DNA of 64,000 nucleotides, taken from positions 50 through 64,049 of the forward strand of contig DATJQB010000290.1 of the NCBI GenBank assembly GCA_035506075.1, in the 5' to 3' direction. How positions within the stretch are numbered: the stretch's first letter is position 1; each line of letters opens with the position of its first letter. The notes below the pieces were generated by a model. The model saw only the letters and a program-made list of their open reading frames with translations, did not search any database and had not been told where the DNA came from. Below, piece after piece: positions 2,642 through 31,030 of this stretch. The stretch is from Bacteroidota bacterium. GTDB taxonomy: Bacteria > Bacteroidota > Ignavibacteria > UBA10030. Made by a program: the position numbers and the translations under genes.

Positions 2642-5600
2642 TTAGAAATCAAACCTGACACCAAAGTAGTACTCACGCGGGATATCATAGAACGGGCTTC
2701 CGTTCAATGCAACTGCGCGCTTGTAGGTACCAGTCGGATCAGGCGTGCCGTTGTTCAACGTCGTCATGCCGGCATTCGAGTACTCCCAAAGTGCCGCACC
2801 AGAGGCCGTGTTGTCGTAGCCAATGATGTTGACCCAGTTGAATACGTTCTTCATATCGAAGTAGACGGAGAAGCGGAGATTCGAAACCGTGAATCCCTTT
2901 TCAATCCGCATGTCAACCTGCTTGTTCCACGGAGCCTGACCAAACACACGGCCGGCGACGCGGGGATCTGCGGTCAACGACAACGGATAGTAGAAACCGC
3001 TCTGGAAGGTTCCCATCGAGGAGAGCATGATCTGGTACGGGAATTCGAAGAACAACACGTACGAAATCCTGTGCGCACGATCGTAGCCGCCCGTCAACAG
3101 GTTGTTTCCACCGACTACGTTGACTTCAACCTTGTTGTACGACCAGAAGTCATCGAACGGCAGCGTTTGGCCATACTTCAGGGTATCCGGACGAGAGAAC
3201 GTGGTCTGCTGCAGAGGATCGTTGCCCGTCCATCCGGTTGCCTTGATATAGCTGTAGGAGTAGTTCACACGTCCATACAGGGTGACGAAATCAAAATACG
3301 TCTGGCGCAGCGCCTGGAGTCCGAACTCAACACCGCGGGCATCAGCGTACTGCGCTGTGAGCCACATCGAGTTCGAACCGTTCGCGAGGTTCAGGGAGAC
3401 AGCCTGGTAGCTGTAGTTCTCAATGTCACGCATGTACGCAGAGAACGTCAACCCAAACTTCTTCGGAACAAATTCCCACTGAGCGCCGATTTCGTAGTTC
3501 GACGAAATCGTCGGCTGCTGCTGCAGACTTGCAAACTGCGGAAGGCCGCCGGCCGCGCCGAGCACTTCGTTGTAACTCGCATAGAGGCGTGAGTACGGAG
3601 GCGGAATGAAATTGCGCGAATAAGAGAAGTACATCGCCGCTTCATCGGAGATCGGGTGCGACACGCCGATACGCGGTGAGAAGAACCAGTACGGCTTCAC
3701 GTTGGTCGACTGGCGCAGCGGAATCAGATCGTTCCGAAGGCTGTCGTCCACCATCGCCGGCTGATTGACAAACAGGTTGTAGTAGCTCAACCAGTCAGCT
3801 GCTTTGGGATCCCAACGGTCGATACGGGCACCGAGGTTGATCACGAGACCCGCATATTCCATGCGATCCTGCAGATAGCCGCCGTACATCGTCGGCTTGA
3901 AGTCCCAGTCTTCAACAAGCAGCCTTCTCCTGACGTCCGTCGCATCCGCGCCCAGACCGGAGTTTCTCTGGATCCGGCTGATATCGTTGAACTGGAACGA
4001 CACACCGGCCTTCAGCTGGTTGTGGTAGTCAGCCTGGCTGGTAATGTCAAACTTGACCGTGTTGGTCAGGTTCTTCGTGTTTTCATAGATAAACTGCGGC
4101 CGCGTGATGCCGACCTGCGTATTGCCGGAGGTCATTGGCTGTGTAATAAAGCTCGGGCCGGCCTCGTCGCCAATACGGAAGAACTTGTAAAGATCGACGC
4201 CGGATCGGGAGACATATTTATCCACGTCGGCTGTTTTTTCGAGCGTAATAAAATTGCCATTTTCGTTGAGACCGCAGAAGCCATCGCCGTTATCGTCGCA
4301 ATAGCCATAGCGGTCCTGCTGGAATTTCGAGCTAAGCTGAATCTCGTAGAACGTGCTGGGTGAAAGCACATGGGTCATTTTCACGCTTCCCGTTGCGCCC
4401 ACACCGTCGTTCTTCGGCACGCCCTCGAGGAAATACCGCCACTGGTCGTTGTAGAAGGTGTTCTTCCATCCGAAGAGTCTGCCTCTGTCATTCAGGATTC
4501 CAAAGGCATTCAATTTGATGTTGCTGCCGAGGTTGTAGGTCGTCTTCAACGTGAAATCGGCCTCACGCTCGTGTTCGTTCGGCAGACGATCGTGCGAATC
4601 GAAGTACCGGCCGCTGAACATGAATCCCCAATCCTTTGTAATACCGCCGCTGATCATACCGTCGATATCCATCACCGGCTTGTCCTGATTGAGGTACTTC
4701 CCCTTGGTGTAGGTGTATTTCCCCGCCTTGATGCTGTCCGACGTAATGAGCGTCTGACGTGCGGCTGTCGGGGCTGTCGCCTGGAGGGTCTTCAGCGAGT
4801 CTGTGGCACGCTGTGTTGCGTTCCGCTCGTCGAAGTACACCTGATCGTTCCAGTAGAGATCCGGGCCGACGTATTTCAGGCCGTTCATCTGGCTTGACTT
4901 GACGGAGAAGCTGCCCGTCAGGTTGCCGCGTCCTTCACGGAGGGAGTAGTTGATAAGGCCGGCGGTCGCCGAAACGTTGTCTGCACCGACTGCGCCGGTA
5001 TTCACGGACATCTGCTCAATGGAGTTGAAATTGACGGAGTTCGTTGTGCTCAATTGGTAGTTTCTGTATCGCACAAGGCCGCCCGATGTCGAGAGGATGT
5101 TCTGGTTCGCCTGATCGGCACCAATCGCGTAGTACTGGTCGGTGACGTCGACGCCGTCGACGATCGTTTTGGTTTCCGTGATCTTACCGCCGCGGACGAA
5201 CCCTTTGTAGGCGCCCGGCGTTGTGTTCAGGACATCCAGAACGGACGTGATCGGCAGCTTGTTGTCCAGTTCATCTTTCGTAACGAGGGCTTTCGACGAA
5301 GTCTGCGACTTGTCGACCACTCTCATCTGGGCCTGAACGACCACCTCTTTCAATTCGATCGTTTCCTGCCGCAGGTCAAAATTCAAATCCGAAGTCTGAT
5401 CCGCACGCACCTGTACACCATTGACTTCCGTGCGCGCATACCCCACACTTGATGCCTGAATGGAGTACGTCCCCGGTGGAACGTTGAGGATGTAGTATCG
5501 CCCTTCAGCATCAGTCGCCGCTCCCATCGTTGTGCCCACGACAATCACGTTCGCGCCAACGACGGCTTCCTTCGTGGTGGCGTCCTTTACCGTCCCGGAA

Positions 5601-5686
5601 ATTTTTCCGTTCCCCGCATAGAGGAACGCTGGGATGGCAAGGATTATCAAGAGTATCAGGAGAACTTTGCACCAAGAGGATCTCAT
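2642..5686 (-). CDS. TonB-dependent outer-membrane receptor with N-terminal carboxypeptidase-regulatory-like (CarboxypepD_reg) domain
   Basis: 1014 aa. Signal peptide, then a GKISGTVKD...GANVIVVGTTMGAATDAEGRYYILNVPPGTYSIQASSVGY CarboxypepD_reg-like segment. Plug/barrel-length protein ending in terminal Phe (FGVRFDF), as expected for an outer-membrane beta-barrel. Confidence 0.85.
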   Translation of the reverse strand: MRSSWCKVLLILLIILAIPAFLYAGNGKISGTVKDATTKEAVVGANVIVVGTTMGAATDAEGRYYILNVPPGTYSIQASSVGYARTEVNGVQVRADQTSDLNFDLRQETIELKEVVVQAQMRVVDKSQTSSKALVTKDELDNKLPITSVLDVLNTTPGAYKGFVRGGKITETKTIVDGVDVTDQYYAIGADQANQNILSTSGGLVRYRNYQLSTTNSVNFNSIEQMSVNTGAVGADNVSATAGLINYSLREGRGNLTGSFSVKSSQMNGLKYVGPDLYWNDQVYFDERNATQRATDSLKTLQATAPTAARQTLITSDSIKAGKYTYTKGKYLNQDKPVMDIDGMISGGITKDWGFMFSGRYFDSHDRLPNEHEREADFTLKTTYNLGSNIKLNAFGILNDRGRLFGWKNTFYNDQWRYFLEGVPKNDGVGATGSVKMTHVLSPSTFYEIQLSSKFQQDRYGYCDDNGDGFCGLNENGNFITLEKTADVDKYVSRSGVDLYKFFRIGDEAGPSFITQPMTSGNTQVGITRPQFIYENTKNLTNTVKFDITSQADYHNQLKAGVSFQFNDISRIQRNSGLGADATDVRRRLLVEDWDFKPTMYGGYLQDRMEYAGLVINLGARIDRWDPKAADWLSYYNLFVNQPAMVDDSLRNDLIPLRQSTNVKPYWFFSPRIGVSHPISDEAAMYFSYSRNFIPPPYSRLYASYNEVLGAAGGLPQFASLQQQPTISSNYEIGAQWEFVPKKFGLTFSAYMRDIENYSYQAVSLNLANGSNSMWLTAQYADARGVEFGLQALRQTYFDFVTLYGRVNYSYSYIKATGWTGNDPLQQTTFSRPDTLKYGQTLPFDDFWSYNKVEVNVVGGNNLLTGGYDRAHRISYVLFFEFPYQIMLSSMGTFQSGFYYPLSLTADPRVAGRVFGQAPWNKQVDMRIEKGFTVSNLRFSVYFDMKNVFNWVNIIGYDNTASGAALWEYSNAGMTTLNNGTPDPTGTYKRAVALNGSPFYDIPREYYFGVRFDF

Positions 5687-6498
5687 GATGTTGCTCCTTG
5701 GATGTAGAAGTATATCAGTGAATTAATAACCGTTGTAGAATATAGAGAGAGGATCAAGAAAGACTGTAACGCACAATCGGTATTGCTGTGGATGATGCCG
5801 CTGATGCAGCGTAGCAACTATTCGGTCCCAGCACCTCCCTTCTTTGAATGCGTTGGGTTGGATTGGGGGTGAGATTCAGTTTCAGATTCGCGCACAACGG
5901 AAACGTTACCACAGCTTCTCACACCCTCACCATGCGGCAACACCACGGTGTGAATGGTACGATGGAATTCTTCAGGAAGAGAAGCTTTGAGTTCGCTGCC
6001 ACAACCCCGAAGGGCCCGCGTAGAGCGAGAGTTTCATTAATAAAACTCGGTTTCAGCGGGGGAAGTATAAAACATTTTGCCGGGAATGTCAAGACACGAC
6101 ACTCGACACTTCAAGATAGTACGGAAGGGATTCCTCCAAGGCAATGCGAATCCCCGAGATGTCTGCTTCCCGCGCCGGCACCGCAGCCAATGCGTGACTC
6201 TGCGACCGGTTTTGTGTAGATTCCTGCATCCGGACCGCGTACGCCAACTTCGTTTCAGGATGAAAACGGTGAACCGGCTTCTGCCTTCCGCACCAATTGC
6301 CCGCATTCAATGTCCCCGGGTGGTCGCGTTCACGTCCTCGATGAGTGTCCGTTTCGTCCCACGCACGTGCGTCCGTTGAAACGGATCACCGCACTCTATA
6401 ATAAAGAGGTCAACAACTCAAACCCATCCCCGCCCTGCTCCCGCACCGTGCTCATCCAGCTCCCCATACAACAAAAGGACTGCGGTCCGTCTCATTTC

Positions 6499-8919
6499 GT
6501 GCGATTCCGGAACATCATCGCCGCCGGATTGATGCTGGCCGTTTTTTCCTCCAACGCATCAGGACAAACGTACCGGCTGACCGGCTCCGTCCGCGACGCG
6601 TCAACGAACGAGCTTCTCCCCTTCGTCACGGTCTACGTACGAAATGCGCAACAGGGAACATCCACTGACGATCGGGGCGCCTTCACACTCCGGCTCAAAC
6701 CCGGCACCTACGAAATCCTTGCCAGCCTTGTCGGCTACAAGACTGAAACCTCCAACATCCAGCTGGGACATGATCTCCAGCGCCTCGACCTGAAACTGAC
6801 TCCAACCGATATTCTCCTCCAGGAAGTCACCGTCTATTCCGGCTCGGCAGAACAGGCGCCGCAGTCCGAGACGAGCGCACTGTCGCTCCAGGGGCGCAAG
6901 ATCGTGGAGACGACTACGGTTATCCCCGACGTGTTCCGGTCTGTGCAGACGCTCCCGGGAATTTCATCGGATAACGAGTTCAGCGCAAAGTTCAGCGTGC
7001 GCGGCGGAACGCCGGACGAAAATCTCGTCCTCGTCAACGGCGCCCAGGTCTATGAGCCGTTCCACGTCAAAGAAGCGCCAAACGCAAGCATCGGCATTTT
7101 TAATACGGATATGATGCGTAAAGTTACGTTGGTTACCGGCGGGTTCAGTGCGAAGTACGGCGATAGAATGAGCGCTGTGATGGATATTGAATACCGCGAC
7201 GGGAGCCGGGAGAAGCTCCAGGGCTCCGCCACCCTCAGCATGACCAACTTCGATCTTCTGCTCGAAGGACCGGTGAGCTCAAGCGGGTCCTTCATTGTCG
7301 GGGCACGCAAGAGTTACGTCGAGTATGCACTGTCGATGCTTGGCTTCGACAAATCGATTCGCCCATCCTTCTACGACGTGCAGGGTGTAGCCACCTGGTC
7401 TCTGACTCCCAGGGACAAGCTGCAGTTTGAATTCATTCACGCCGGCGACACGTTTACGCTCGAACCAGGCACATCCCTGGGCGGCCCCTCGATCTACAAC
7501 AGTCAGTACAAAGGAAAAGCCGCGCAGTTTCTCGAATCATCTTCTTCTTCCGAAGGAGAGGATGCTCATTACACGAGCAACCTTGTGGATGTCCAGTGCA
7601 CCGACGTTCTTTCGCCGACGATCTTCGTGAAAAGCGAACTCTCGTACTATCAGCAACTTGAGCACGAATTCAGTTACAATTCCAATCTCTTTGCCCGGGA
7701 TATTTCATCGACGGTGAATTACTTTTACCGTTCGGATCAGGAATATCTGTACTCAAACGATCTGACCATCCGCACCGTCGAGGCCAAGAGTGCTCTCGAG
7801 ATCCAGTTGACACCGTACTATGAACTCAACGCAGGGGGCAGCATCCAGTCGATCTTCTACAATGAACATCTCATCGACCGGCGCACGATCGACGAATCAA
7901 TGAACACGACGCACTATCCGGATACAACGCTCACACACCGGGTTGTTAATTCTGTTGACGCCGCGGACGAGACCATCGACGCGCAATCGTACAAGCTTGC
8001 CTTCTATGCCGAACAGGTGCTCCAGATCGGTGAACGGCTTCTTCTCAACCTGGGCGGGCGGCTTGATTATTTCGCGATCAACCGGGATCTGAACCTCAGC
8101 CCGCGCTTCAACCTGGCCTACCGCCTCGTTGATCAAACAACCCTGCGGGCCGCATGGGGCTTCTATTTTCAGTCGCCCATCTACCGCCAGCTGTCATACT
8201 CTTTTGCTTCAGATACGAACACGAAAGCCCAAAAGGCTGTTCACTCCATTCTTGGCATCGAACACGTCTTTCCCTTCAATCCATCGGTCGGCGCTTCGCT
8301 CACTGTGAAGCTCGAGGGGTTCACCAAACGTTATACAAACCTCATCTCGGCAGCACGAACGAGCAGCGGGCGCATCACCTACTCACGGAAAAATGACGCC
8401 GTCGGTTCTGCGCGCGGACTCGATCTCTACCTGGCCCTCAATCTCCCGCGGTTTTACGGCTGGATCAGCTATGGTCTGCTCGATGCACGCGAAGATCTCG
8501 TCCATGATGCGATCGGCGAATATCCGATGTTTACCGACCAACGGCACACGGCGTCTCTTGTCGGCGAATGGGATCTTGGAAACGGCTGGAGCTCCAACCT
8601 GCGCGTTCAATACGGAAGCGGCTATGCCTACACGCCGTCAGTGGCACAGTATGATGCGCAGAAGGGACAATGGGAGTGGGTTCAGGGAAGAACGAACAGC
8701 GCCACGCTTCCTCCGTACCGCCGCGTGGACACTCGTGTGGCAAGAGACTTCACAATTGCCGGCCTCGCGACATCGGCATTTCTCGACGTGAGCAACGTGC
8801 TGAACTTCACGAACATTCAATCGTACCGTTATCGATTTAACAGCAACGGCCTGCCCTATATAGAATCCGTCAAACTCTGGCCGATTCTCCCAACCCTTGG
8901 GATGTCAGTGAAATTCTGA
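6499..8919 (+). CDS. TonB-dependent outer-membrane receptor (CarboxypepD_reg N-domain)
   Basis: ORF-track frame 6310..8919. Likely GTG start near 6499, giving signal peptide MRFRNIIAAGLMLAVFSSNASGQ. Then a YRLTGSVRDASTNELLPFVTVYV...GTYEILASLVGY CarboxypepD_reg-like domain. C-terminal ...LGMSVKF ends in Phe. Divergent from the TBDR at 2642..5686. Confidence 0.8.
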   Translation: MRFRNIIAAGLMLAVFSSNASGQTYRLTGSVRDASTNELLPFVTVYVRNAQQGTSTDDRGAFTLRLKPGTYEILASLVGYKTETSNIQLGHDLQRLDLKLTPTDILLQEVTVYSGSAEQAPQSETSALSLQGRKIVETTTVIPDVFRSVQTLPGISSDNEFSAKFSVRGGTPDENLVLVNGAQVYEPFHVKEAPNASIGIFNTDMMRKVTLVTGGFSAKYGDRMSAVMDIEYRDGSREKLQGSATLSMTNFDLLLEGPVSSSGSFIVGARKSYVEYALSMLGFDKSIRPSFYDVQGVATWSLTPRDKLQFEFIHAGDTFTLEPGTSLGGPSIYNSQYKGKAAQFLESSSSSEGEDAHYTSNLVDVQCTDVLSPTIFVKSELSYYQQLEHEFSYNSNLFARDISSTVNYFYRSDQEYLYSNDLTIRTVEAKSALEIQLTPYYELNAGGSIQSIFYNEHLIDRRTIDESMNTTHYPDTTLTHRVVNSVDAADETIDAQSYKLAFYAEQVLQIGERLLLNLGGRLDYFAINRDLNLSPRFNLAYRLVDQTTLRAAWGFYFQSPIYRQLSYSFASDTNTKAQKAVHSILGIEHVFPFNPSVGASLTVKLEGFTKRYTNLISAARTSSGRITYSRKNDAVGSARGLDLYLALNLPRFYGWISYGLLDAREDLVHDAIGEYPMFTDQRHTASLVGEWDLGNGWSSNLRVQYGSGYAYTPSVAQYDAQKGQWEWVQGRTNSATLPPYRRVDTRVARDFTIAGLATSAFLDVSNVLNFTNIQSYRYRFNSNGLPYIESVKLWPILPTLGMSVKF

Positions 8920-9134
8920 ATCATTCGGGCGGTTCCGCTCCCGCCGTTTCGGACTCCACGCCGGGGCTCAACAGCCCGTCCGCCACATTCTTCAACATTA
9001 TGAGCCCTGCCGGTAGAGCAACAAATCCCTCCCCTCTCCCGTAAGACTGGAAGGATCAAATCCTCTTGCCGGGTTCCTTCTTCACGACTGCAGCCTCCGG
9101 GCTCCCCGGCTTCAATTCTTGCGGAGATGTTACC

Positions 9135-10847
9135 ATGAAAGCCCACAAACTCTTCGTCCCTTTCGTCGCGTTGCTCTTCACAACTCCTCTGTTCGCGCAG
9201 GGAGATCTCCTGAGCGAGATTCACCGCGTCGGAGTGTATGATGTCAAGAGCAACGGATTCGTTCTGGATTCAGATCAGGGTGTCACCATCCACGCGGTTG
9301 CAGCAAGCGATCGTTACCATGGGGTCGGGACTTCCGCCTGGATTCTCGACAAGTCGACGCGCGCTGTCGTCTGGAAACTCTGGAATGCGAAAGAACATCG
9401 TCGCAGCAAAGGTCTTTCGGAGTATGACGATGTTGTCCAGCTCCCCAAAGGGGACTACGAAGTGTACTACGCCGCATATCCCGAGCCATCAGACAACGTT
9501 GAAAACTTCAGCGACTTTATGGATCTTCTCTCGAGCAAGATCTTCGATGGAAGGCGACGCGACCGCGACTATGATGAATTCTCCATCACTGTGCGCGGCC
9601 ACGGGAAACCCGTCGCGTCCGATGGAGTTGAACAATGGCAGGAGGGTTTGAAAAAGGATGCGCTCGTGTCGATGTCGGCCCTCTGGGACAATGAGTACGT
9701 GCAGCGCGGATTTGTACTTGAGAAACCCGCCGAGCTGACCGTCTATGCTCTCGGAGAAATCCTCGACGACAATCTCGACGATTACGGATGGATCATGAAC
9801 GCCAAAACCGGATCACGGGTATGGCAGATGGACGAGCGCACGATGAAGAACGCCGGCGGTGCGCGCAAGAACCGGATGGTGCGTGAGACTCTTCAACTCC
9901 CCGCCGGACAGTATGTCGCATACTTTGTGACGGACGGATCGCACTCGTACCGGTCGTGGAATGCCGCTCCGCCGTACGACCCGGCATTCTGGGGAATGAC
10001 AATCTGGGTCAAGGATGAAAGCCAGAAGAAATACGCGAAGACGTTTGATTTCAAGCCATCCGCTCCGAAGAACGTCCTTGTCGACCTCACACGATTGGGC
10101 GATCACGAAGTGCGGTCGAAGGCCTTCACGCTCAAGAATGGAATGGATGTTCACATCTACGCCATCGGCGAGGGGCGCGACCACGAGATGTCCGATTACG
10201 GCTGGATCGTCGATGCCACCACAAGGAAGAAAGTATGGAAGATGGAGTACGATCAAACCAGTCACGCCGGCGGCGACAAGAAGAACCGGATCGTTGACAA
10301 GGTTCTTCATCTCGACAAGGGAAGCTACGTCGTGCATTTCGTCACGGACGATTCCCATTCCTATCGTGACTGGAACTCGTCCCCCCCGTTCGATCCCGAG
10401 CACTGGGGGATCACCGTGAGCGCTGCAAGTGATCAGTTCAATCCTTCCGATGTGACTTCATACGAGGAGCGGGACAATCCTTCTGTGCTCGCGAGCATTC
10501 TTCGCGTGGGAGACGATGAGCGGCAACACAAGAAATTCTCTCTTGCGAAGACAAGCACTGTGCACATCTATTCAGTTGGCGAAGGGCGCGACGGTGAGAT
10601 GTACGATTACGCCTGGATCGAGGACGCGAACTCCGGAAGAACGGTCTGGAAGATGAAATACAGGATGACGGAACGGGCCGGCGGTGCATCAAAGAACCGG
10701 CTTTTCGACGGCACCATTTCTCTTCCCGCGGGCAGTTATATCGTCTACTACGAAACAGACGACTCTCATTCGTATGACGATTGGAACGATACACCGCCTG
10801 ATGATCCGGAAGCGTGGGGTGTTACGGTGTCACTCGAAAAGCAGTAG
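9135..10847 (+). CDS. Secreted protein composed of four tandem ~135-aa repeats of an unrecognised domain
   Basis: ORF-track frame 9066..10847. Start moved to MKAHKLFVPFVALLFTTPLFAQ (signal peptide). Four repeats each contain IYA/SVGEGRDxEMxDYGWIxDAxTxxxVWKMxY...AGGxxKNRxV...GSYVVxFVTDDSHSYxDWNxxPPxDPExWGxTV. The repeat is also visible at DNA level (gattacggatggatc / gattacggctggatc / gattacgcctggatc at ~9781, ~10195, ~10603). Confidence 0.7.
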   Translation: MKAHKLFVPFVALLFTTPLFAQGDLLSEIHRVGVYDVKSNGFVLDSDQGVTIHAVAASDRYHGVGTSAWILDKSTRAVVWKLWNAKEHRRSKGLSEYDDVVQLPKGDYEVYYAAYPEPSDNVENFSDFMDLLSSKIFDGRRRDRDYDEFSITVRGHGKPVASDGVEQWQEGLKKDALVSMSALWDNEYVQRGFVLEKPAELTVYALGEILDDNLDDYGWIMNAKTGSRVWQMDERTMKNAGGARKNRMVRETLQLPAGQYVAYFVTDGSHSYRSWNAAPPYDPAFWGMTIWVKDESQKKYAKTFDFKPSAPKNVLVDLTRLGDHEVRSKAFTLKNGMDVHIYAIGEGRDHEMSDYGWIVDATTRKKVWKMEYDQTSHAGGDKKNRIVDKVLHLDKGSYVVHFVTDDSHSYRDWNSSPPFDPEHWGITVSAASDQFNPSDVTSYEERDNPSVLASILRVGDDERQHKKFSLAKTSTVHIYSVGEGRDGEMYDYAWIEDANSGRTVWKMKYRMTERAGGASKNRLFDGTISLPAGSYIVYYETDDSHSYDDWNDTPPDDPEAWGVTVSLEKQ

Positions 10848-10895
10848 GATCGGCGGGGAGCGCAGGGAACCCCGGCGCTTGCATGGGAACCACGG

Positions 10896-10928
10896 AAGGC
10901 GGACGAAACGATGTCCGCCTTTTTTATT
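10896..10928. terminator. Bidirectional rho-independent terminator between convergent genes
   Basis: Stem aaggcggac / gtccgcctt with loop gaaacgat, followed by TTTTTATT on the + strand. An A-rich run precedes it, so it is also usable on the - strand. It sits in the 76-bp gap between the repeat-protein gene and the convergent dipeptidase gene. Confidence 0.55.
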
Positions 10929-12624
10929 TGCACACAGCTCTGAAGACCCTCATGAAGTTTTCCCCCAGAATCTTCCTGACGTCCTGTTTCGAATAACCCC
11001 GCTGGAGCAGGGCTTCGGTGATCGCCGGAAATTTCGAGACGTCTTCAAGACCCACGGGGGTTGTCTCGATACCGTCGAAATCGGATCCGAGCGCCACGTA
11101 ATCGATACCGACAAGATTCTTGATGTAATCGATGTGCTGAATGACATTTTCCAGGCGCGCCGTGCCGGAAGAAACGAGAAACGTCGGGTAGAACACGACA
11201 CCGATGACTCCGCCCCGCTGCGCTATCGTCCGGATCTGTGCGTCGGTCAGGTTCCTGTAGTGATTGCGCACGGCCGCAGCTCCTGAATGGGAGGCGATAA
11301 TGGGGTTCTTCGAGGTCGCGAATATATCTGTCACGGTCTGGGGGCCGACGTGCGACACATCGATGATCATGCCGAGCGAATCCATGGTGCGGATGACACT
11401 CTTCCCGAACTCATTCAATCCCCCGGCCACACCGGATGAAGCATCCTTCGCCGAGACAGCCCACGAGGTGCTGTTGTTCCAGGTGATCGTCATGACGCGC
11501 ACACCGGCACGATAGAACGCGCGCAGGTTGTCAAGGTTATCCTCGATGCTGTGCCCTCCCTCCACAACCACGATGCCCGCAATCTTGTTCTGGCGCGTCA
11601 GTGCGTCCACCGTGTCGGCAGACGTTGTCAGCTTCACATCGTTTGCGTTCCGCGCGACCTGGGCTTTCAGCGTATCGAGAAATTTCATGCTCGTTGCATA
11701 ATACGCCGGCGCGTATTTGGTGGGATCGATCCAGATGGATAAGATCTGCGCGTCCACGCCCCCATCCCTGAATCGCGGAATATCGGTCTGCGGATCTCCG
11801 TTCCTCACAACCACGTGGCGATCGGCAATCTGGTAGGTGAAGTTCGTCCCCGAGATCACTTCCATCACATCGTTATGGAGGTCGATCACGAACGCCCGGT
11901 CGTGCACAGTCTCAAGAAGAAAGTCCGCCTGAGCAGAATCGACGAACGCCACGGTTGCTGAATCCGGCTCGTAAATCAACGACGACGCAACGATGCGGCA
12001 CGAATCGATGCCGGAGGGCGAAGCAAGGTTCCACGAAATGCTTCTTCCCATGACGGACAGGGTGGTCAGTCCCGGCATTGCTCCCCCGTCGAGCTGCACC
12101 ATTTTCCGTGTCAATCGCTCTCCCCCCATCTCAATCGAGTAGAACAGCACGCCCGCGCTTCCCTTCGAAGTCCAATCGATTGTGTAACTTCCCTGCCGGA
12201 GGTCGAATTCTTTCGCGTCAAGGAGCTGGCCAAGGATGTTGTAGACCGTGATGCGCGCTCTGCCCGATCGGGAAATTGTAAACGGAATCTTCGTGGATGG
12301 GTTGAACGGGTTGGGGTAATTTTGTTCCAGGCTGAACGAGCGCGGAACATCTCCCGTCTCTGCAATGCCAACGACGGGAATGTTCACCTGCCACTGACCG
12401 AGCGTGTTTGTGGTCGTCGATGCGAGGAGAACTCCAGAGCGATCGTACACCTGGATGGCAGCCGAAGCAACCGGTGTTCCGCGGTGCTTGTCACGCGCCG
12501 TTCCGCGGAGGGTCTTTCCGCCTGCATACAGTCCGGCAACAAGAAAGAACGCCGCCAGGGCCGTGAGGCAAAGACGATGTGTGGTTCGAAGAGAAAGAGC
12601 GGGAAGCCCGATGAGAGTTGTCAT
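10924..12624 (-). CDS. Membrane (renal-type) dipeptidase, peptidase family M19, with N-terminal signal peptide, CarboxypepD_reg-like segment and an internal T9SS-sorting-domain-like segment
   Basis: ORF 10924..12669; start probably M16 (MTTLIGLPALSL...LVAGLYAGG signal). The C-terminal ~380 aa carry M19 hallmarks (VIDLHNDV..., HSIEDNLDNLRAFYRAGVRVMTITWN, DVSHVGPQT, ASHSGAAAV, GSDFDGIE). Residues ~110-190 read SLEQNYPNPFNPSTKIPFTIS...ITVYNILGQLLD...GSYTIDW...GVLFYSIEMGGERLTRKMVQL, which is the canonical T9SS sorting-domain pattern, here placed N-terminally. Confidence 0.8.
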   Translation of the reverse strand: MTTLIGLPALSLRTTHRLCLTALAAFFLVAGLYAGGKTLRGTARDKHRGTPVASAAIQVYDRSGVLLASTTTNTLGQWQVNIPVVGIAETGDVPRSFSLEQNYPNPFNPSTKIPFTISRSGRARITVYNILGQLLDAKEFDLRQGSYTIDWTSKGSAGVLFYSIEMGGERLTRKMVQLDGGAMPGLTTLSVMGRSISWNLASPSGIDSCRIVASSLIYEPDSATVAFVDSAQADFLLETVHDRAFVIDLHNDVMEVISGTNFTYQIADRHVVVRNGDPQTDIPRFRDGGVDAQILSIWIDPTKYAPAYYATSMKFLDTLKAQVARNANDVKLTTSADTVDALTRQNKIAGIVVVEGGHSIEDNLDNLRAFYRAGVRVMTITWNNSTSWAVSAKDASSGVAGGLNEFGKSVIRTMDSLGMIIDVSHVGPQTVTDIFATSKNPIIASHSGAAAVRNHYRNLTDAQIRTIAQRGGVIGVVFYPTFLVSSGTARLENVIQHIDYIKNLVGIDYVALGSDFDGIETTPVGLEDVSKFPAITEALLQRGYSKQDVRKILGENFMRVFRAVCK

Positions 12625-12686
12625 CCCACCGGGCTTCTGCGGTGTGTGCAAAACACTCTGACTGATCAATATACCTCAAAGACCGC

Positions 12687-13657: not shown

Positions 13658-15601
13658 TCAGCGCATGATGACAAATTTGCCCGTGTGGGTCCCGACAGAG
13701 GACTCCACAACGTAGATGTACAGCCCACTGACGGCTTCCTGGTTGTTCCTGGTCGTCAGATCCCACTCGGCAACTCCGGTGAAATCACCGGTGATCTTCA
13801 CATCGCGGCTCTGGTAGACAACATCGCCGCTGTGGATCGTCTTGACGAGGTCGCCGGCAAGTGTGAAGATCGAGATCTTCGCATCCGGCGGGAGGTTGAT
13901 GAAGCGGATCCTGTTCACCCATGGATTTGTATCAACCGGATTGGGGTTGTTGTACCTGCTCGACCCCAGGAACGGATTCGGAACGACCTTGATTCCCGAT
14001 GTTGTCGAGGCGGCAGGAGCGTTCGGCATGAAGACCTGCGTCGACTGGCGGCCGCGGCCAATCTGGTTTTCAAGCCTTCCGATGCCAAGCGTCGAATCGC
14101 CCGAGTCAAATGCGGTGACCGCGTACGTATAGATGAGTCCGTTCGGCGTGTTCTTGTCCTGGAACTCGTAGAGCGTGTCACTTCCCTGCACAACTGTTGA
14201 CGGGGGCCAGTTCTTCAGGAAGGGGCGGCCGTACCAAAGCGTGTCCTTCTTCTTGTCGATGGCGTTGTTCTTCACGTAGATTGCCAGTGTATCCCAGATC
14301 GCATTGCCTCCCGCGTCCTGCCGCGACGTGCGATACACGCCGTAGCCGGCAAAATCCTGCGCCAGCGTCAGTGGATCGCGGCTCGACTCGGCGTTTTTTC
14401 TCCACCGAATTGAAAGCGTCGGCTGTCCGCCGGAAGTAACCGGAACAACGTTGAAGACCGGCACATCCGGTGCCGCCGGGGCGCGCTGGTAGTTGCCGTC
14501 AAACATCGATTGTGCCACCAGGGAGTTCTTGATAATCCCCTGAAGCCCCGGTCCGATGACCCAGGCGACGACAATATGAATTGAGTCACCGGCATTGAGC
14601 GTGTATGGTCCGACACCGAAAATGATCCTGTAATCACGGATCGTTGTCATGTTCTCCGTGATGGTTCCCTTTGCAACGAACTCATATTGTGCCTGCGACG
14701 TAAGCGGTTCGAAATTCCGATACGACGGGGTTGCCATAGTTGGCTTTCCCGTGTACTTGCCGGTGAAATGTACGCTGTCACAATACAGCATCCGGAAGCC
14801 GATGTATCCCGGCGAACGCAGAACGCCCGTCACAGGATCAGGGTTGCCCGTATCGTCGCCCACAACGCTCGGGCTGTCAGAATCGTAGATGTAGGCAAGC
14901 TTGTTCGTGGAATCGTAACCCGCCAGGTCATCGGTATCCCACAGCGTGGATGGTGTGCTTGTTCCCAGGAACCCGGACACGTCTGCATCCTGGCGGAACG
15001 CGACATAGATGCCGGTCAGTTTTTTCTCCGCATCGTCAATCACGCCGTTCTTGTTCCGGTCGTACGGAACATACTTGATCCAGTAATCGCCGATGATGAA
15101 ATCTTCGTTGTACGATTGATCCCACACGTACGTCCGCTCGGTTACTTCCACGCCGAGGTTGACGTGCACACCCGACGGACTTGCAGGGTCGATATCGGTG
15201 TAGCGCGTGTACGTATCTTCTGCCGAGAGCGATCCCTCGGCGGCGTGTTTGACGTGGATTGAATCGAGCGGGCGGAAATGATTGTTCTCTCCCGACGACA
15301 TGTAGCCGAGTGAATCCGCGATGCCGCCGATCCAGATCGACTGCAGCCAGCCGTACAGGTTACCGCTGCCTCCCGGCCATTCGAAATTGGGTTCTTCATA
15401 GTTGCGGTCGCCGTAGAACCCGTAGTTTGTAATCTGTGTCCAGAGCCTTCCCATCTTGTGGCTGAATCCCTTGGCGGGAATATCCGTGACCGAAGAGGTT
15501 TTCATGGGAAGCTTCTCGCGGACTTTCGGCACATCCTGCGCCCACGCCACGGTGAGAAGGAACATGCTTGCAAGGAAGATGCGTATGAGAGTTGTTTTCA
15601 T
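13658..15601 (-). CDS. Secreted T9SS cargo protein (paralog B) with C-terminal T9SS sorting domain
   Basis: 647 aa. Signal peptide MKTTLIRIFLASMFLLTVAWAQD. C-terminus ...AVSGLYIYVVESSVGTHTGKFVIMR follows the T9SS sorting-domain pattern. The internal GPYTLNAGDSIHIVVAWV...DFAGYGVYRTS block is homologous to ORF 30..2594. Starts 7 bp after the TBDR stop. Confidence 0.7.
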   Translation of the reverse strand: MKTTLIRIFLASMFLLTVAWAQDVPKVREKLPMKTSSVTDIPAKGFSHKMGRLWTQITNYGFYGDRNYEEPNFEWPGGSGNLYGWLQSIWIGGIADSLGYMSSGENNHFRPLDSIHVKHAAEGSLSAEDTYTRYTDIDPASPSGVHVNLGVEVTERTYVWDQSYNEDFIIGDYWIKYVPYDRNKNGVIDDAEKKLTGIYVAFRQDADVSGFLGTSTPSTLWDTDDLAGYDSTNKLAYIYDSDSPSVVGDDTGNPDPVTGVLRSPGYIGFRMLYCDSVHFTGKYTGKPTMATPSYRNFEPLTSQAQYEFVAKGTITENMTTIRDYRIIFGVGPYTLNAGDSIHIVVAWVIGPGLQGIIKNSLVAQSMFDGNYQRAPAAPDVPVFNVVPVTSGGQPTLSIRWRKNAESSRDPLTLAQDFAGYGVYRTSRQDAGGNAIWDTLAIYVKNNAIDKKKDTLWYGRPFLKNWPPSTVVQGSDTLYEFQDKNTPNGLIYTYAVTAFDSGDSTLGIGRLENQIGRGRQSTQVFMPNAPAASTTSGIKVVPNPFLGSSRYNNPNPVDTNPWVNRIRFINLPPDAKISIFTLAGDLVKTIHSGDVVYQSRDVKITGDFTGVAEWDLTTRNNQEAVSGLYIYVVESSVGTHTGKFVIMR

Positions 15602-15610: not shown

Positions 15611-18364
15611 TTAAAATTGGAGCTGCAACCCGAGCCGGTACACGCGGGGAGGCGTGTAGGCCTGGGGATCGTTGTAGGGACCGGTCGGGTTACCCGTGGC
15701 TTCGTATTCAACAAGACCTTCACGTCCATCGGAGATGTAGGAAATGTTCCTGGTGTTCAGCAGGTTCTTGACCTCTGCGAGCACCGAGAATTCAATCTCA
15801 CCAACCGTAAAGGATTTCCGCGCACGCATATCCACGTTGCTTGCCCACGGAAGCCGGGCGTCGTTGCGAAGGACAAACAGCGGAAACGCATCGCGGGTGT
15901 TCGATGAATACGGATAGCCGGAGTGGGCGACGACCACAAAATCGACCTCGGCATCGCCGATGAGGTCGTGAATCTTTCCCGTCGACGTCAGGAGCAGGTT
16001 GCCGTTGATTCTCCAGCGCACATCCCAGTCGAGCGGATCGAGGCGACGCGGAACAATTTCACCGTTCGATCTGAACACAGACGACGAACGGCCGTTTGCG
16101 AACGCGTAGCTCACGTTGATCATCCCGCCGATTCCACGGGTTGCCATCGTCTCGAGCGTCATTTCCAATCCGCGTACGTTCGCATAATCCATGTTCGTGT
16201 ATGCCTGGTACGAATCGGGGGAACCCGTGATTACGAAGTCGGTGGCCCCGATGAGGTTGGTGATGTCTTTGAAATAGAGCGTTGTGTTCATCCTGAGAAA
16301 ATCGGAGAACATGTGATCCCAGCCGAGCTCGTACGATACGGTCTTCTCCGGCAGCAATCTCGGGTTGCCGAGATCTACGTTTGTCGTGTAGCGGAAATTC
16401 AGAGCGCTGTTTTCATAGAGGAAGCGAAGATCCGGACGCTGGAAGAAGTGTCCATAATAGAAATGAATCTTGTCCCTCTCGGTAATTGGATGTGAAATGC
16501 CGATGCGGGGGCTGATCTGCCACCGGGCGGGAACCTTGTCGGACGTCGTCAGACCCAGGGCATCCTTGTGGCTCGGCAGTGTGGTAAGATCGGCGGGATA
16601 GAGCACGTCCCCCGTCAAACCGTTTGGATTATAGTAATCGAAGCGGATGCCGGCATTCACAATAAAACCGTCGCGGACTTCGATCTTGTCCTGGAGATAT
16701 GCGGCAAAGTCCACCAGGTCCTGGTTCCACATATCAAAGCGCTGATTGGAAGGAGACTCGAATGTCACCTTCTCAACGCCCCCCTTGATGTAGTCTGTTT
16801 CGACCCCGGTCTTGAAGAGGTTAGAAGAGTTCAGCTGGTTTGAATAGTCGACGCGCAGGTTGGTTGTGCGTGAGATCTGATTCAGATACCATCCTTCATC
16901 GCCGGTGTAGTACCAGTAACCGTCGGTCAAGAGGTGGCTGTAGTAGCCCCCAATGCCGCCATTGAGTTGCCAGTGAAGTTCGTCCGTCGTGCTGCCGTCG
17001 AGATTCCTGTCGTCGACATCGCGGACGATCTCACGGAAGTTCGTCCAGAACTGTGACAATTTGATGTCGATGAACGATTGATTGTTGATCGTCTGGTTGA
17101 TCGAGAGACCGATGTTGTAGCTTTTGTTGATCGGGAGTGAAATGTGATTCTGCATTCCCGCCTGATAGATGTTCTGCACACTCTTGTACCACAGGCCGTC
17201 GACTGCATATCGTGCCGAGTCGGGATTCTTCGCGTTGTGGTAGTTTTGTGGATTGGTGACGAAGATGAACTGTTGCAGCGTCTTGACGCCGTTCGAGGTA
17301 ACGAGCTGCTGGAAGAGATCCGACTGGTATCCTTCGCTCAGCGGTCCATACTTCGCGGAGGAGTGATAGTAGGAATTCGTCTGGTCCCAGGAATACAAGC
17401 CGCTGAGTGTGACGCGGGTATTCGGAGTCACCGCCCGCATCTTGAGCTGGTAGGATTCCCTGTGAAAATCCTCATGTGGAAGAAAATCGCGGTTCTGCAG
17501 CGCAACGTCCGTTGAACCGTTCAGATAGAAGTTGATTCCCCCCATGGTAACGGAAGGAGCGCTGATATATGCTTCGTAGTCTTTCCAGTCCGGCTGACCG
17601 GTGCCGTACGCGAAGGGCGTCCACTGCATCTTCGCCCACGGAAAATCCGAGGTGCGGACGCGGAGCTTAGCGCCGAACCTGTTCTGATCCCGCGTGATTG
17701 TGTTGACGATGCCCGATTGCGCATTGCCGTACTCCGCCTCAAACCCGCCCGTCGTTACCTGGATCTCGGAGACGCTGAACTCGGGAAGATTGGCTGAGAA
17801 GCCGGCCGTTGTTGTTCCGCTGTAGCTGTTGATGGCGCTCTTGATCGCCATGCCGTCAACCAGGAACAGCGACTCGTTGAAGCGGCCGCCGCGGAAATGA
17901 CTTCCGTTCACGCCGGCCTGCATGAAGACCACCTCTCTGAAATCGTCGACCGGCAGAGCGTTGATCGCTTCGGCTTCAACGATGTGCTTCGTGGATGTCA
18001 GGTCTGCCTGAATCGGAGGCCTTGTCGCCACAACGACAACCTCGCCGAGCTGGACATCAGCCGCCTGCAGCGGGAAATCGATTGTCGTGGTCATGTCGAG
18101 CATGACCCTGATGTTCGAGATGGTCTTTGGTGCAAAGCCAATCATCGACGCGCGCAGGGTATAAGTCCCGACGGGCACGTTGATAATGAAGTAGTTGCCG
18201 TCGACATCGGAAGCCGTTCCATAGGTGGTACCAACAATCTGGATGTTCACCATCGGGAGCGGCTGGTGAGTGGCGGCATCAAAGACGCGACCAGCGATTT
18301 TTCCGGTCGTCCCCGCCAATGCGAGCTGGGACGCGAGAAGAAAGAAGCAAAGGAGCCTTTTCAT
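15611..18364 (-). CDS. TonB-dependent outer-membrane receptor (CarboxypepD_reg N-domain)
   Basis: 917 aa. Signal MKRLLCFFLLASQLALAGTTG, then KIAGRVFDAATHQPLPMVNIQIVGTTYGTASDVDGNYFIINVPVGTYTLRASMIGF. Plug/barrel length and C-terminal ...RLGLQLQF. Confidence 0.85.
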   Translation of the reverse strand: MKRLLCFFLLASQLALAGTTGKIAGRVFDAATHQPLPMVNIQIVGTTYGTASDVDGNYFIINVPVGTYTLRASMIGFAPKTISNIRVMLDMTTTIDFPLQAADVQLGEVVVVATRPPIQADLTSTKHIVEAEAINALPVDDFREVVFMQAGVNGSHFRGGRFNESLFLVDGMAIKSAINSYSGTTTAGFSANLPEFSVSEIQVTTGGFEAEYGNAQSGIVNTITRDQNRFGAKLRVRTSDFPWAKMQWTPFAYGTGQPDWKDYEAYISAPSVTMGGINFYLNGSTDVALQNRDFLPHEDFHRESYQLKMRAVTPNTRVTLSGLYSWDQTNSYYHSSAKYGPLSEGYQSDLFQQLVTSNGVKTLQQFIFVTNPQNYHNAKNPDSARYAVDGLWYKSVQNIYQAGMQNHISLPINKSYNIGLSINQTINNQSFIDIKLSQFWTNFREIVRDVDDRNLDGSTTDELHWQLNGGIGGYYSHLLTDGYWYYTGDEGWYLNQISRTTNLRVDYSNQLNSSNLFKTGVETDYIKGGVEKVTFESPSNQRFDMWNQDLVDFAAYLQDKIEVRDGFIVNAGIRFDYYNPNGLTGDVLYPADLTTLPSHKDALGLTTSDKVPARWQISPRIGISHPITERDKIHFYYGHFFQRPDLRFLYENSALNFRYTTNVDLGNPRLLPEKTVSYELGWDHMFSDFLRMNTTLYFKDITNLIGATDFVITGSPDSYQAYTNMDYANVRGLEMTLETMATRGIGGMINVSYAFANGRSSSVFRSNGEIVPRRLDPLDWDVRWRINGNLLLTSTGKIHDLIGDAEVDFVVVAHSGYPYSSNTRDAFPLFVLRNDARLPWASNVDMRARKSFTVGEIEFSVLAEVKNLLNTRNISYISDGREGLVEYEATGNPTGPYNDPQAYTPPRVYRLGLQLQF

Positions 18365-21562: not shown

Positions 21563-21627
21563 CGAGTATCCCCCTTCCCCAATGCCGAAATCCGGTCTGT
21601 CTGTACTACGGTTCCCGAGAACGAGAG

Positions 21628-30856: not shown

Positions 30857-31030
30857 AGCAACTCTCTTTCTGTTGATGCGGAACGGATCCCACGTGGGCG
30901 GCCGGGAACATTGCCGTTCCCGGCAAGTGTCCGGCAGACCCCATCCAAGTGTGAGACGATTCATCAACAGGAAAAGTTGCACGGCCGACAATGGCGATGT
31001 CGGGAATCTTCATGTGGGCTATTCTGCCGG

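Follow-up and report, generated by a model that had tools for sequence, protein, structure and literature searches.

A gene in the window (the whole 64 kb stretch of DNA analysed here) encodes an exported protein that consists almost entirely of tandem repeats, and it lies downstream of a gene for a TonB-dependent receptor. The questions that it raises are what kind of domain the repeats form, what they might bind and whether the protein is a partner of that receptor.

The repeat protein and its relatives

The open reading frame and its start agree with their earlier description, the stop codon being that at 10845–10847, and the 570-residue product is 100% identical with the database entry 'hypothetical protein VMH23_11110 [Bacteroidota bacterium]'. 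The ATG at 9135 was preferred over an in-frame TTG at 9066 because of the Shine–Dalgarno-like GGAG (Table 1); the TTG is only ~16 nt past the predicted transcription start. The intrinsic terminator sits between the gene and a convergent M19 dipeptidase gene, and no paralogue of the protein was found within the 64 kb window.

Table 1. Features of the repeat-protein gene, with positions in the window and residues of the product
Feature	Residues	Position	Strand	Remarks
ECF-sigma-type promoter motif GCAAC-N17-CGTA		9018..9043	+	-35 GCAAC 9018–9022, -10 CGTA 9040–9043
Shine–Dalgarno-like GGAG		9123..9126	+	8 nt before ATG 9135; read directly
Coding sequence		9135..10847	+	570 aa plus stop
Predicted Sec type-I signal peptide	1–21	9135..9197	+	MKAHKLFVPFVALLFTTPLFA; hydrophobic N-terminus, no lipobox
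Repeat R1, degenerate	22–158	9198..9608	+	38 bits against repeat profile
Repeat R2, canonical	159–296	9609..10022	+	196.5 bits, E 2e-60; polar cluster kept
Repeat R3, canonical	297–433	10023..10433	+	214.3 bits, E 7e-66; polar cluster kept
Repeat R4, canonical	434–570	10434..10844	+	203.7 bits; unit modelled singly
Intrinsic terminator		10894..10930	+	12 bp stem, 6 GC pairs, T-run

The N-terminus reads MKAHKLFVPFVALLFTTPLFA followed by QGD, and cleavage is predicted between the two, before Gln22, from the conserved 'A-Q'. A comparable N-terminus is found in 221 of 268 relatives, and a lipobox-like Cys in just three of the 268; no match to Por_Secre_tail (T9SS sorting) was listed for the protein or for any of 82 homologues. 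The protein lacks a lipid anchor, a T9SS tail and a barrel and is therefore most likely soluble and periplasmic, and its location may extend beyond the periplasm. In its mature form it is acidic (pI 5.25) and free of Cys, the family median being one Cys per protein.

Comparison of the protein with itself, as proposed in the initial annotation to define the repeat borders, gave three strong diagonals, offset by 137, 138 and 275 aa and scoring 287–359 with BLOSUM. The tandem units of ~137 aa described there are real, but they are not four equal copies; rather, one degenerate repeat is followed by three canonical ones. R2, R3 and R4 share 38–47% identity pairwise and each scores 196–214 bits against the repeat profile, whereas R1 is 19–32% identical with them and, against a profile built without the 570-residue protein itself, scores 38 bits compared with 5.8 for the best of 500 shuffles. 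By these scores R1 is a real but degenerate copy, which matches the β-core alone (profile positions 17–108), lacks the AGG..KNR, DDSHSY, DWN and DPE motifs, that is, every polar motif, and carries a helical, low-confidence insert at residues 119–148 (pLDDT below 50 at 119–124 and 137–141). The claim that the repeat can be recognized even in the DNA held weakly: global nucleotide alignments of R2–R4 gave 59–64% identity and exceeded shuffles by more than 10 SD, those of R1 by just ~1.3–2.3 SD, and a repeat search returned one 103 nt pair between R3 and R4 (73% identity, spacing 411 nt), but Tandem Repeats Finder detected no tandem repeat in the DNA.

Searches of Pfam, NCBIfam and PDB sequences gave no family above cut-off, so the description of the domain as unrecognized stands; a profile match to a well-characterized family, the result that the initial annotation had named as counting against it, was looked for and did not occur. 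Scans of the whole protein, 82 homologues and the single repeats against Pfam and NCBIfam yielded sub-threshold noise only (AMPK1_CBM, DUF6786, DUF5013, DUF4458 and CopC), the single repeats had no related Pfam match at E≤1, with two chance-level hits for R2 only, and PDB sequence and profile searches found nothing below an E-value of 0.78. Individual candidates were rejected as follows. CBM48/AMPK1_CBM (PF16561) scored 20.6 bits for the 570-residue protein against a gathering cut-off of 26.8 bits, with sub-threshold hits in 25 of 82 homologues and none for single repeats. DUF6786 (PF20583), for which a literature search found no paper mentioning the family, gave whole-protein E-values of 5e-6 or weaker in 35 of the 82 homologues, including 25.1 bits in P0014, the one homologue shown in detail, with no individually significant stretch; these stayed below the cut-off of 27 bits, and neither the 570-residue protein nor any single repeat had a hit. 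As to CBM6/CBM35, no such CBM HMM was among the matches listed for the protein, the 82 homologues and the single repeats, and no carbohydrate-active enzyme is attached. CopC and CopK scores were weak and at chance level. On the strength of these searches, the repeat is a previously unannotated domain that no curated domain model covers.

The family comprises 1192 clusters at 50% identity and is present in at least 572 species genomes, and all members seen carry the label hypothetical. Its carriers are Ignavibacteria-like Bacteroidota, Calditrichota, KSB1, Latescibacterota, Marinimicrobia, Gemmatimonadota and Acidobacteriota, and it thus extends over at least seven phyla, which are for the most part uncultured and are prominent in soil, sediment and groundwater. 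Exactly four domains are present in 238 of 268 relatives, and no other recognizable or fused domain was found in any of the 268; longer relatives owe their length either to an extended insert following R1 or to additional repeats, and in members with five or six repeats the extra copies are duplicated canonical ones. The best match of each repeat in other proteins is the repeat at the same position in 97–100% of cases, and the four-domain order, as read from these matches, is ancestral.

Predicted fold and conserved polar cluster

AlphaFold models of the whole protein (pLDDT 85.4, pTM 0.68) and, with AlphaFold2, of R4 alone (pLDDT 92.1, pTM 0.83, eight β-strands) were confident and predict an eight-stranded β-sandwich, the fold guessed in the initial annotation. 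Foldseek searches against the PDB and BFVD returned generic jelly rolls alone. For the whole model the PDB neighbours were CUB proteins, at the top, and the ColG collagen-binding domain, and for one repeat they were CBM6, PPC, the MAp19 CUB domain and GOLD. These neighbours are metal- or ligand-binding jelly rolls, although the fold class that the model suggests is a generic one, because all structural matches had TM scores below 0.5.

Among 238 proteins the polar cluster of the canonical repeats is nearly invariant (R4 numbering). Glu50, Asp58, Gly83, Gly84, Asn88 and His112 are 99–100% conserved in each of R2–R4, as is Asp109 at 97–100%, with Lys87 at 93–96%, Arg89 at 84–100% and Ser111 at 89–95%. 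The full cluster comprises Glu50, Asp58, Gly83-Gly84, Lys87-Asn88-Arg89, Asp109-x-Ser111-His112 and Trp117-Asn118; the predicted model places its residues in the loops that follow strands 3, 5 and 7, and strand alternation would bring these loops together at one end of the sandwich. Across the same 238 proteins R1 retains the core residues Phe35, Trp61, Trp72, Gly100 and Tyr102, but not Glu50, Asp58, Gly83-Gly84, the KNR motif or the Asp109 and His112 of DxSH. An invariant cluster of Asp, Glu, His, Asn, Lys and Arg would fit a ligand- or metal-binding site, as had been suspected from the aromatic and acidic motifs.

Promoter, gene neighbourhood and proposed function

A conserved element upstream of the gene was considered as an RNA structure and rejected, as RNAalifold gave only a weak 6 bp helix (-2.4 kcal/mol); Rfam had nothing at gathering threshold, with chance hits only at E≤1. 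We reinterpret the element as a probable promoter. The motif lies between the receptor gene and the start codon, 92 nt before the ATG, and when 160 nt upstream of the gene were scanned on the coding strand at 82 loci, G[ACT]AAC-N16/17-CGT[AC] was present in 48, compared with 0.5 expected (binomial 2e-83), and on the opposite strand in none of the 82. Its distance to the start codon is tight, with a median of 54 nt, and 91% of hits have a G two bases before the AAC, although this was not imposed in the first scan. The strict motif is absent from 34 of the loci, some of which are operonic with an upstream gene and some of which have a variant -10. The motif agrees with the published ECF consensus, which has AAC at -35 and CGT at -10, with TGAAAC..CGTA for sigW (PMC5758882). 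No ECF sigma gene was found in the 64 kb window, and the ten other hits to the motif there were not above chance (~6 expected). In several KSB1-like loci (L028, L033, L037, L056 and L058 among them), an ECF sigma gene (Sigma70_r2 plus r4_2) and an ORF with weak likeness to RseA_N are found just upstream, as is, in several KSB1-like loci, the gene for a DUF6249 membrane protein. The gene appears, from its upstream sequence, to have its own conserved ECF-type promoter, and may depend on such a sigma factor.

Partner genes were sought by ORF clustering of 86 loci and by a Pfam tally of 101 flanking genes, and none was found, no Pfam family occurring in more than six of the 101. In addition, there was no conserved neighbour among these flanking genes that pointed to a ligand.

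Our preferred reading, which we advance tentatively and at somewhat below an even chance, is that of an envelope-stress-regulated, multivalent, metal-assisted binding protein. The product would be a Sec-exported soluble protein forming a rigid array of four eight-stranded jelly-roll domains, of which the N-terminal copy, R1, would have lost its functional site while R2–R4 keep theirs. Each of the three clusters may hold a metal ion, most likely Ca2+ and possibly a transition metal at the His, that organizes a ligand-binding site, by analogy with CUB domains that bind Ca2+ and with metal-dependent lectins or CBMs. Held in fixed register, the three sites could bind multivalently to a repetitive envelope or extracellular ligand, most likely a glycan or polyanionic polymer, or alternatively to basic side chains exposed on proteins or peptides. 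Transcription would be from the gene's own ECF-sigma-dependent promoter, and the protein would therefore be made within the cell-envelope stress response rather than as an accessory of the upstream receptor.

Were the modules CUB-like protein binders, with an acidic Ca2+ site that clamps Lys or Arg side chains, the protein might instead be a stress-induced periplasmic holdase or scavenger of unfolded envelope proteins or cationic antimicrobial peptides, which we consider rather unlikely. Genes for periplasmic quality control are typically under ECF control, as in the sigmaE regulon; the acidity of the protein is shared by the family (median pI 5.2) and fits such a role as well. Among the PDB matches of the whole model those to CUB proteins rank first, and the spacing E-x7-D ... 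D-x-S-[N/H] resembles that of the Ca2+ site of CUB domains, whose acidic residues bind ligand lysines (PMC6372009). However, neither sequence nor profile comparison showed similarity to CUB, and Lys87, Asn88, Arg89, His112 and Trp117 are not CUB features but resemble a site for a small polar or anionic group.

The initial annotation had thought of a surface protein working with the upstream receptor, which would make the repeats a nutrient-capture array of CBMs, like SusE/SusF, passing substrate to that receptor. On the same strand, 215 nt separate the stop of the receptor gene (8919) from the ATG, no terminator-like site was found between the two, and the arrangement recurs in six further locus records (L001, L002/L016, L008, L009 and L010). 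CBM6 modules are the best single-repeat PDB matches by E-value, and the sub-threshold CBM48 scores noted above point the same way. Nevertheless, only 7 of 86 locus records, representing six distinct contigs (L002 and L016 are one contig), have a receptor of this type immediately upstream, all of them from Ignavibacteria-like relatives with 51–100% identity, and elsewhere TonB receptor domains occur in 4–5 of the 101 flanking genes. Such adjacency comes cheaply because receptors are very dense in this genome, with four in a 30 kb part of the window. No SusD-like neighbour was seen at the examined loci, and the 25 commonest Pfam families in the 101 flanking genes included no glycoside hydrolase family. 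With its own promoter, and with neither a lipoprotein Cys nor a listed Por_Secre_tail match, so that nothing would place the protein on the cell surface, the gene gives little reason to retain the partnership, and we judge this reading improbable. A tempting guilt-by-association link to the neighbouring receptor is thereby corrected.

A periplasmic metal buffer or metallochaperone, in which the three His/Asp/Glu sites store or deliver a transition metal, would account for one His and three carboxylates being invariant in each repeat, and the receptor upstream in the nearest clade could then import a metallophore. In one checked locus, L003, a gene for YbjQ_1 (PF01906), which we take to be a putative heavy-metal-binding protein, is directly upstream, and the upstream sequences of L026 and L032 are near-identical with that of L003. 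CopC and CopK also scored weakly, but at chance level; a Cu or Zn site would not usually have just one His and neither Cys nor Met, nor was a metal-regulator box identified or a metal transporter found to be conserved in the neighbourhood, and we regard the proposal as highly unlikely. A reading of the single repeats as small enzymes, such as metal-dependent lyases or esterases that attack an envelope polymer through catalytic E, D, D and H, is very improbable: the near-100% invariance of Glu50, Asp58, Asn88, Asp109 and His112 at 40–50% overall identity is active-site-like and D-x-x-H, by our own observation, resembles a catalytic dyad motif, but three tandem active copies of a 137-residue all-β domain would be an atypical architecture, no enzyme family was seen among sequence or fold matches, and duplications that add copies suit avidity better than catalysis.

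Returning to the multivalent binding protein, a larger proposition is that the repeat is a new bacterial metal-binding jelly roll, convergent with or anciently related to the Ca2+-CUB site, and that the protein is a core ECF envelope-stress effector across the seven phyla listed above. We think this doubtful as a whole; if true, the protein would be a periplasmic factor for stress protection that was not known before, its binding site defined and open to mutation. The confidently predicted fold, the near-invariant polar constellation in three repeats and the conserved ECF-type promoter make the protein a concrete target: it is a candidate effector of envelope stress for which the point mutants to make are obvious, and its domain clearly merits a family entry of its own.

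Comparison with known systems

The CUB systems with which we compared the protein were C1s, C1r, MASP, neuropilin, PCPE-1 and cubilin. The repeat is predicted to be, like a CUB domain, an eight-stranded jelly roll of ~110–140 aa, both kinds of domain form tandem arrays in exported proteins, and the MAp19 CUB domain had the highest TM score among single-repeat matches, 0.47. In CUB domains and, by its model, in the repeat, a Glu ends the third strand, an Asp follows eight residues on and Asp-x-Ser-[Asn/His] comes after the seventh strand, so that E-x7-D ... D-x-S-H in the repeat parallels E45, D53, D98, S100 and N101 of C1s CUB1. These five residues were confirmed in the C1s sequence, and together with Y17 we take them to be its Ca2+ ligands. 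CUB domains consist of two four-stranded sheets and bind ligands through Ca2+ loops with an acidic triad (PMC8051872, PMC6372009), to which a Tyr is added at the Ca2+ site (PMC6372009). Homology with CUB was rejected at the level of sequence, the hhalign probability being 0.1–0.2% against four verified CUB sequences (C1s, MASP-1), and the Pfam matches listed for the whole protein (E≤10), 82 homologues (E≤0.01) and single repeats (E≤1) did not include CUB (PF00431). The differences are that CUB domains have disulfide-forming cysteines, whereas the mature repeat protein has none; that the repeat has His at the position of the Ca2+-ligating Asn and does not conserve the stabilizing Tyr; that its final loop (DWN..PP.DP) is 10 residues longer; that its invariant GG..KNR loop has no counterpart in CUB; and that its hosts are bacterial and the protein belongs to no protease or receptor.

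CBM6 and CBM35 modules have their binding sites at loop ends, often with Ca2+, Asn and aromatic residues. Like the repeats they are jelly rolls used in tandem for avidity, and the CBM6 structures 2cdp and 2cdo gave the best single-repeat Foldseek E-values (2.7e-4, TM 0.41); unlike them, the repeat protein had no glycoside hydrolase fused to it in the 268 relatives and none among the commonest families of the flanking genes, and the TM scores are below 0.5. Among PPC domains, the tandem Ca2+-binding jelly-roll pair of ColG s3a–s3b (5iku) was one of the whole-model matches, and the single domains 1nqj, 4hpk and 5sv5 matched at TM 0.38–0.44. In contrast with clostridial collagenases, there is no sequence match and no peptidase domain accompanies the repeat protein; moreover, PPC Ca2+ ligands are located in the N-terminal linker, and the invariant residues of the repeats lie elsewhere.

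SusE and SusF likewise consist of tandem β-sandwich binding domains, and in the nearest relatives of the repeat protein a TonB-dependent transporter is next door. Membership of this lipoprotein group was rejected, as there is no lipobox Cys in the protein or in 265 of 268 relatives and no conserved SusC/SusD-type linkage; the repeat protein is thus not a lipoprotein, has no SusD partner and no conserved receptor adjacency, and shows no sequence relationship with SusE/SusF. As regards regulation, the comparison is with sigmaW- and sigmaE-type regulons. Although the repeat protein resembles no known regulon member, it shares with them an AAC -35, a CGT[A/C] -10, a 16–17 nt spacer with an A/T tract after the -35 and an exported product, and in several KSB1-like loci a sigma/putative anti-sigma pair adjoins the gene.

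Repeat organization and spread of the family

A BLOSUM62 diagonal scan of the family protein against itself gave three outstanding self-match diagonals, at offsets of 137, 138 and 275 residues and with scores of 287–359, the next best scoring no more than 57. The canonical repeats R2, R3 and R4 are 38–47% identical in pairs and score 196–214 bits each against the repeat profile. R1 is only 19–32% identical to the other repeats and aligns to profile positions 17–108 only, but it is a true copy despite this low identity: it scored 38 bits against a profile made without the family protein, the best of 500 shuffles reaching 5.8. R1 lacks the AGG..KNR, DDSHSY, DWN and DPE motifs and carries an insert (aa 119–148) that is helical and of low confidence in the AlphaFold2 model. 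The tandem repeat protein proposed in the initial annotation therefore stands on the three diagonals and on the profile scores of all copies, but its four copies with shared motifs are corrected to one degenerate and three canonical copies. The repeat had also been described as visible in the DNA, which holds only weakly: R3 and R4 are linked by a single 103-nt pair (73% identity, 411 nt spacing) and global nucleotide alignments among R2–R4 show 59–64% identity, more than 10 SD above shuffles, but Tandem Repeats Finder detected no tandem repeat in the DNA.

Features of the family protein (amino acid positions) and of the window (nucleotide positions)
Feature	Position	Strand	Remark
R1	aa 22-158		degenerate
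R2	aa 159-296		canonical
R3	aa 297-433		canonical
R4	aa 434-570		canonical
ECF-type promoter motif, GCAAC-17 nt-CGTA	GCAAC 9018-9022, CGTA 9040-9043	+	consensus match
Terminator	10894-10930		12-bp stem + T-run, 3' of the family gene, before the convergent M19 dipeptidase gene
CarboxypepD_reg-TonB-dependent receptor gene	2642-5686	-	window
CarboxypepD_reg-TonB-dependent receptor gene	6310-8919	+	window
CarboxypepD_reg-TonB-dependent receptor gene	15611-18364	-	window
CarboxypepD_reg-TonB-dependent receptor gene	26813-29680	-	window

The protein is 100% identical to 'hypothetical protein VMH23_11110 [Bacteroidota bacterium]', and more than 2955 matching proteins, all unnamed, were found at 90% clustering. 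When all 1.84 billion representatives were scanned with the profile of one repeat, 1192 clusters matched at E≤1e-3, with four matched stretches in nearly all of the best 150 of these. Relatives are encoded in at least 572 species-level genomes (79 metagenome-assembled genomes and one single-cell assembly for the 80 loci listed), from Ignavibacteria-like Bacteroidota, Kapaibacteria, Calditrichota, KSB1, Latescibacterota, Marinimicrobia, Gemmatimonadota and Acidobacteriota. Among 268 retrieved relatives, in which we found no other recognizable domain, four repeats are present in 238, five or six in 17 and three in 13, the last mostly reflecting an undetected R1 or truncation. The extra length of longer relatives is a longer insert after R1, and the extra copies in five- and six-repeat members are duplicated canonical repeats. 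In 97–100% of cases each repeat finds its best match in other proteins at its own position, so the four-domain order predates the spread of the family.

Predicted fold and conserved polar residues

The initial annotation did not recognize the domain, and our searches agree. Neither the family protein nor its homologues gave anything above cut-off in Pfam and NCBIfam, the best sub-threshold matches being AMPK1_CBM (20.6 bits against a cut-off of 26.8) and, in some homologues, DUF6786 (approx. 25 bits against 27). Single repeats searched against Pfam at E≤1 gave no related match and two chance-level hits, both with R2, and PDB sequence and profile searches were empty. The domain family is real and widespread, and none of the libraries searched has a curated annotation for it.

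AlphaFold2 modelling with family alignments was confident, giving a pLDDT of 85.4 and a pTM of 0.68 for the whole protein, and a pLDDT of 92.1 and a pTM of 0.83 for a single repeat, which is all-beta with eight strands. The top Foldseek matches of the whole model in the PDB were multi-CUB proteins (neuropilin a1a2, enteropeptidase, MASP and C1r) and ColG with its tandem collagen-binding domains. One repeat matched CBM6, PPC/ColG, the CUB domains of MAp19 and neuropilin, a GOLD domain and jelly rolls of viral haemagglutinins, each of these single-repeat matches with a TM value of 0.3–0.47. A viral structure library held nothing closer. On these models the similarities are generic. Taken with the lack of a sequence assignment and the confident all-beta model, they make the domain a new sequence family whose predicted fold belongs to the jelly rolls, a very common class among binding modules.

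Conservation was examined in the 238 four-repeat proteins, which are approx. 40–75% identical overall. In R4 numbering, Glu50, Asp58, Gly83, Gly84, Asn88 and His112 are conserved at 99–100% in each of R2, R3 and R4, with Asp109 at 97–100%, Lys87 at 93–96%, Arg89 at 84–100% and Trp117 and Asn118 at 92–99%; all are absent from R1, which keeps only the core residues Phe35, Trp61, Trp72, Gly100 and Tyr102. In the single-repeat model, Glu50 and Asp58 fall where strand 3 ends and strand 4 begins, GG..KNR forms the loop ahead of strand 6, and DxSH, WN and DP lie in the long strand 7–8 loop. As successive strands of the sandwich alternate in direction and these connections are odd-numbered, the conserved residues should all lie at the same end.

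An ECF-type promoter motif and a variable neighbourhood

The likely start of the family gene, on the plus strand, is the ATG at 9135, giving 570 aa, rather than the in-frame TTG at 9066, because GGAG lies upstream at 9123–9126 and the product then begins MKAHKLF..., as in homologues. The N-terminus is a hydrophobic type-I signal peptide, MKAHKLFVPFVALLFTTPLFA followed by QGD, with no lipobox cysteine, and the mature protein has a pI of 5.25 and no cysteine. At the N-terminus (window 9135–9203 for the family protein), many sampled family members share an Ala-Gln signal-peptide end, which fits the 'Q-rule' described for Bacteroidetes signal-peptidase-I substrates, whose N-terminal glutamine becomes pyroglutamate.

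Alignment of the upstream regions of the closest relatives revealed a conserved element, GAAACAAA ... CCGTAA, the sequence of which fits the ECF-sigma promoter consensus (AAC at -35, CGT at -10, TGAAAC..CGTA for sigW and an A/T tract after the -35; PMC5758882). RNA structure was tested as a reading of this element and was unconvincing. A loose scan of 82 loci (AAC-N16-18-CGT[AC], spanning 300 nt upstream of the called ORF and its first 90 nt) found the motif in 57 on the coding strand and in six on the opposite strand. With a strict motif (G[ACT]AAC-N16/17-CGT[AC], 160 nt ahead of the inferred start) the counts were 48/82 and 0/82, against 0.5 loci expected by chance from the rate in the rest of the same loci (binomial 2e-83). 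The G two positions before AAC was present in 91% of loose matches, though unconstrained in that scan, and 52 of 54 had a spacer of 16 or 17 nt. From the end of the strict motif to the start codon the median distance is 54 nt, and matches came from all phyla listed for the family. Some motif-negative loci are operonic with the upstream gene or have variant -10 elements.

Several KSB1-like loci carry a divergent ECF sigma gene (Sigma70_r2 + r4_2) approx. 1 kb upstream. An ORF weakly similar to RseA_N comes after it, and a gene for a DUF6249 membrane protein separates the two from the family gene (checked by Pfam in L028, L037 and L058). This conserved module lies approx. 1–2 kb upstream in L028, L033, L037, L056 and L058 and is partial in L029 and L030; the RseA_N-like ORF is 166–173 aa, the DUF6249 protein is small, and several of these loci have a response regulator-PglZ gene downstream. 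Neither an ECF sigma gene nor a paralogue of the family protein occurs in the 64-kb window. Elsewhere in the window the motif occurs ten times, no more than chance (approx. six expected). One match (GTAAC-N16-CGTA, 21607–21631, minus strand) precedes the gene for a TPR protein (20618–21562) by 45 nt and another (GCAAC-N17-CGTC, 30955–30980, minus strand) lies close to the start of a LytTR response-regulator gene; both genes may belong to the same regulon, at a match count that is not significant.

A partnership with the CarboxypepD_reg-Plug-TonB-dependent receptor encoded directly upstream (6499–8919) had been suggested and is not borne out. Receptors of this type are encoded directly upstream in L001, L002 (one contig with L016), L008, L009 and L010 as well; elsewhere the upstream gene encodes YbjQ_1, a beta-lactamase-TPR protein, Omp85/DUF5686, acyl-CoA dehydrogenase, ABC/MacB components or others. 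The 101 flanking genes in 84 loci carry 112 Pfam families, none in more than six genes, and TonB receptor domains occur in four; moreover, 30 kb of the window holds four such receptors. The receptor link is therefore a trait of one clade at most and says little on function. We found no terminator-like site between the receptor stop codon (8919) and the ATG at 9135.

We noticed no SusD-like neighbour of the four window receptor genes. Large ORFs without a Pfam match (30–2594, 854 aa; 13658–15601, 647 aa) follow two of them and recur beside receptors in L001 and L004. The M19 membrane dipeptidase (10924–12669, minus strand; Pfam 341 bits) has a Por_Secre_tail-like (T9SS sorting) domain at residues 118–191, N-terminal rather than C-terminal to the catalytic domain, a layout repeated in L001. 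In L003 a YbjQ_1 (PF01906) gene precedes the family gene by approx. 35 nt, which suggests an operon in this clade, and the family gene is followed by one for an M28/M20 peptidase; the coding sequence upstream is near-identical in L026 and L032. In L006 (6448–11399) the six-repeat homologue P0022 follows a DUF5686+Omp85 outer-membrane protein gene by 3 nt and precedes a DUF4097 gene, an operon-like envelope context unlike that of the window.

Proposed role and comparison with CUB domains

We propose that the family gene has an ECF-dependent promoter of its own, so that the protein would be made under envelope stress, and that the product is exported by Sec. Its sequence shows neither a lipid anchor nor a T9SS tail or barrel, which makes the periplasm its most likely location. 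The pTM of the whole protein suggests that the domains form a fairly fixed array rather than beads on a string, and three equivalent invariant sites, probably metal-organized, would bind a repeating ligand with avidity. Lys, Asn, Arg, His and Trp surround the acidic cluster, which suggests that the ligand is a polar or anionic group such as a sugar, uronate or phosphate. The main alternative is a CUB-like grip on basic side chains. CUB domains form their ligand site from Ca2+ loops and salt-bridge ligand lysines to the Ca2+-site carboxylates (PMC8051872; PMC6372009). Rival readings of the protein as a receptor-linked capture factor, as a metal buffer or as a tandem enzyme have no more support than avid binding of a repeating ligand.

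On present evidence this is no categorically new kind of system: the fold class is ordinary, the sequence family is new and the regulatory association is conserved. The domain is well suited to a new domain entry and to biochemical follow-up.

The E-x7-D ... D-x-S-H pattern of the family has the order and spacing of Glu45, Asp53, Asp98, Ser100 and Asn101 in C1s CUB1 (sequence confirmed against PDB chains), the residues that ligate Ca2+ there. Legume lectin Mn2+/Ca2+ sites are made of the same residue types, Glu, Asp, Asp, His and Asn. Membership of the CUB family is nevertheless unsupported: Pfam CUB is not among the matches listed, hhalign of the repeat against four CUB sequences gave a probability of 0.2%, the protein lacks cysteines, and the CUB tyrosine is not conserved. 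CUB and lectin sites may thus serve by analogy as a model for how the domain works, not as its classification.
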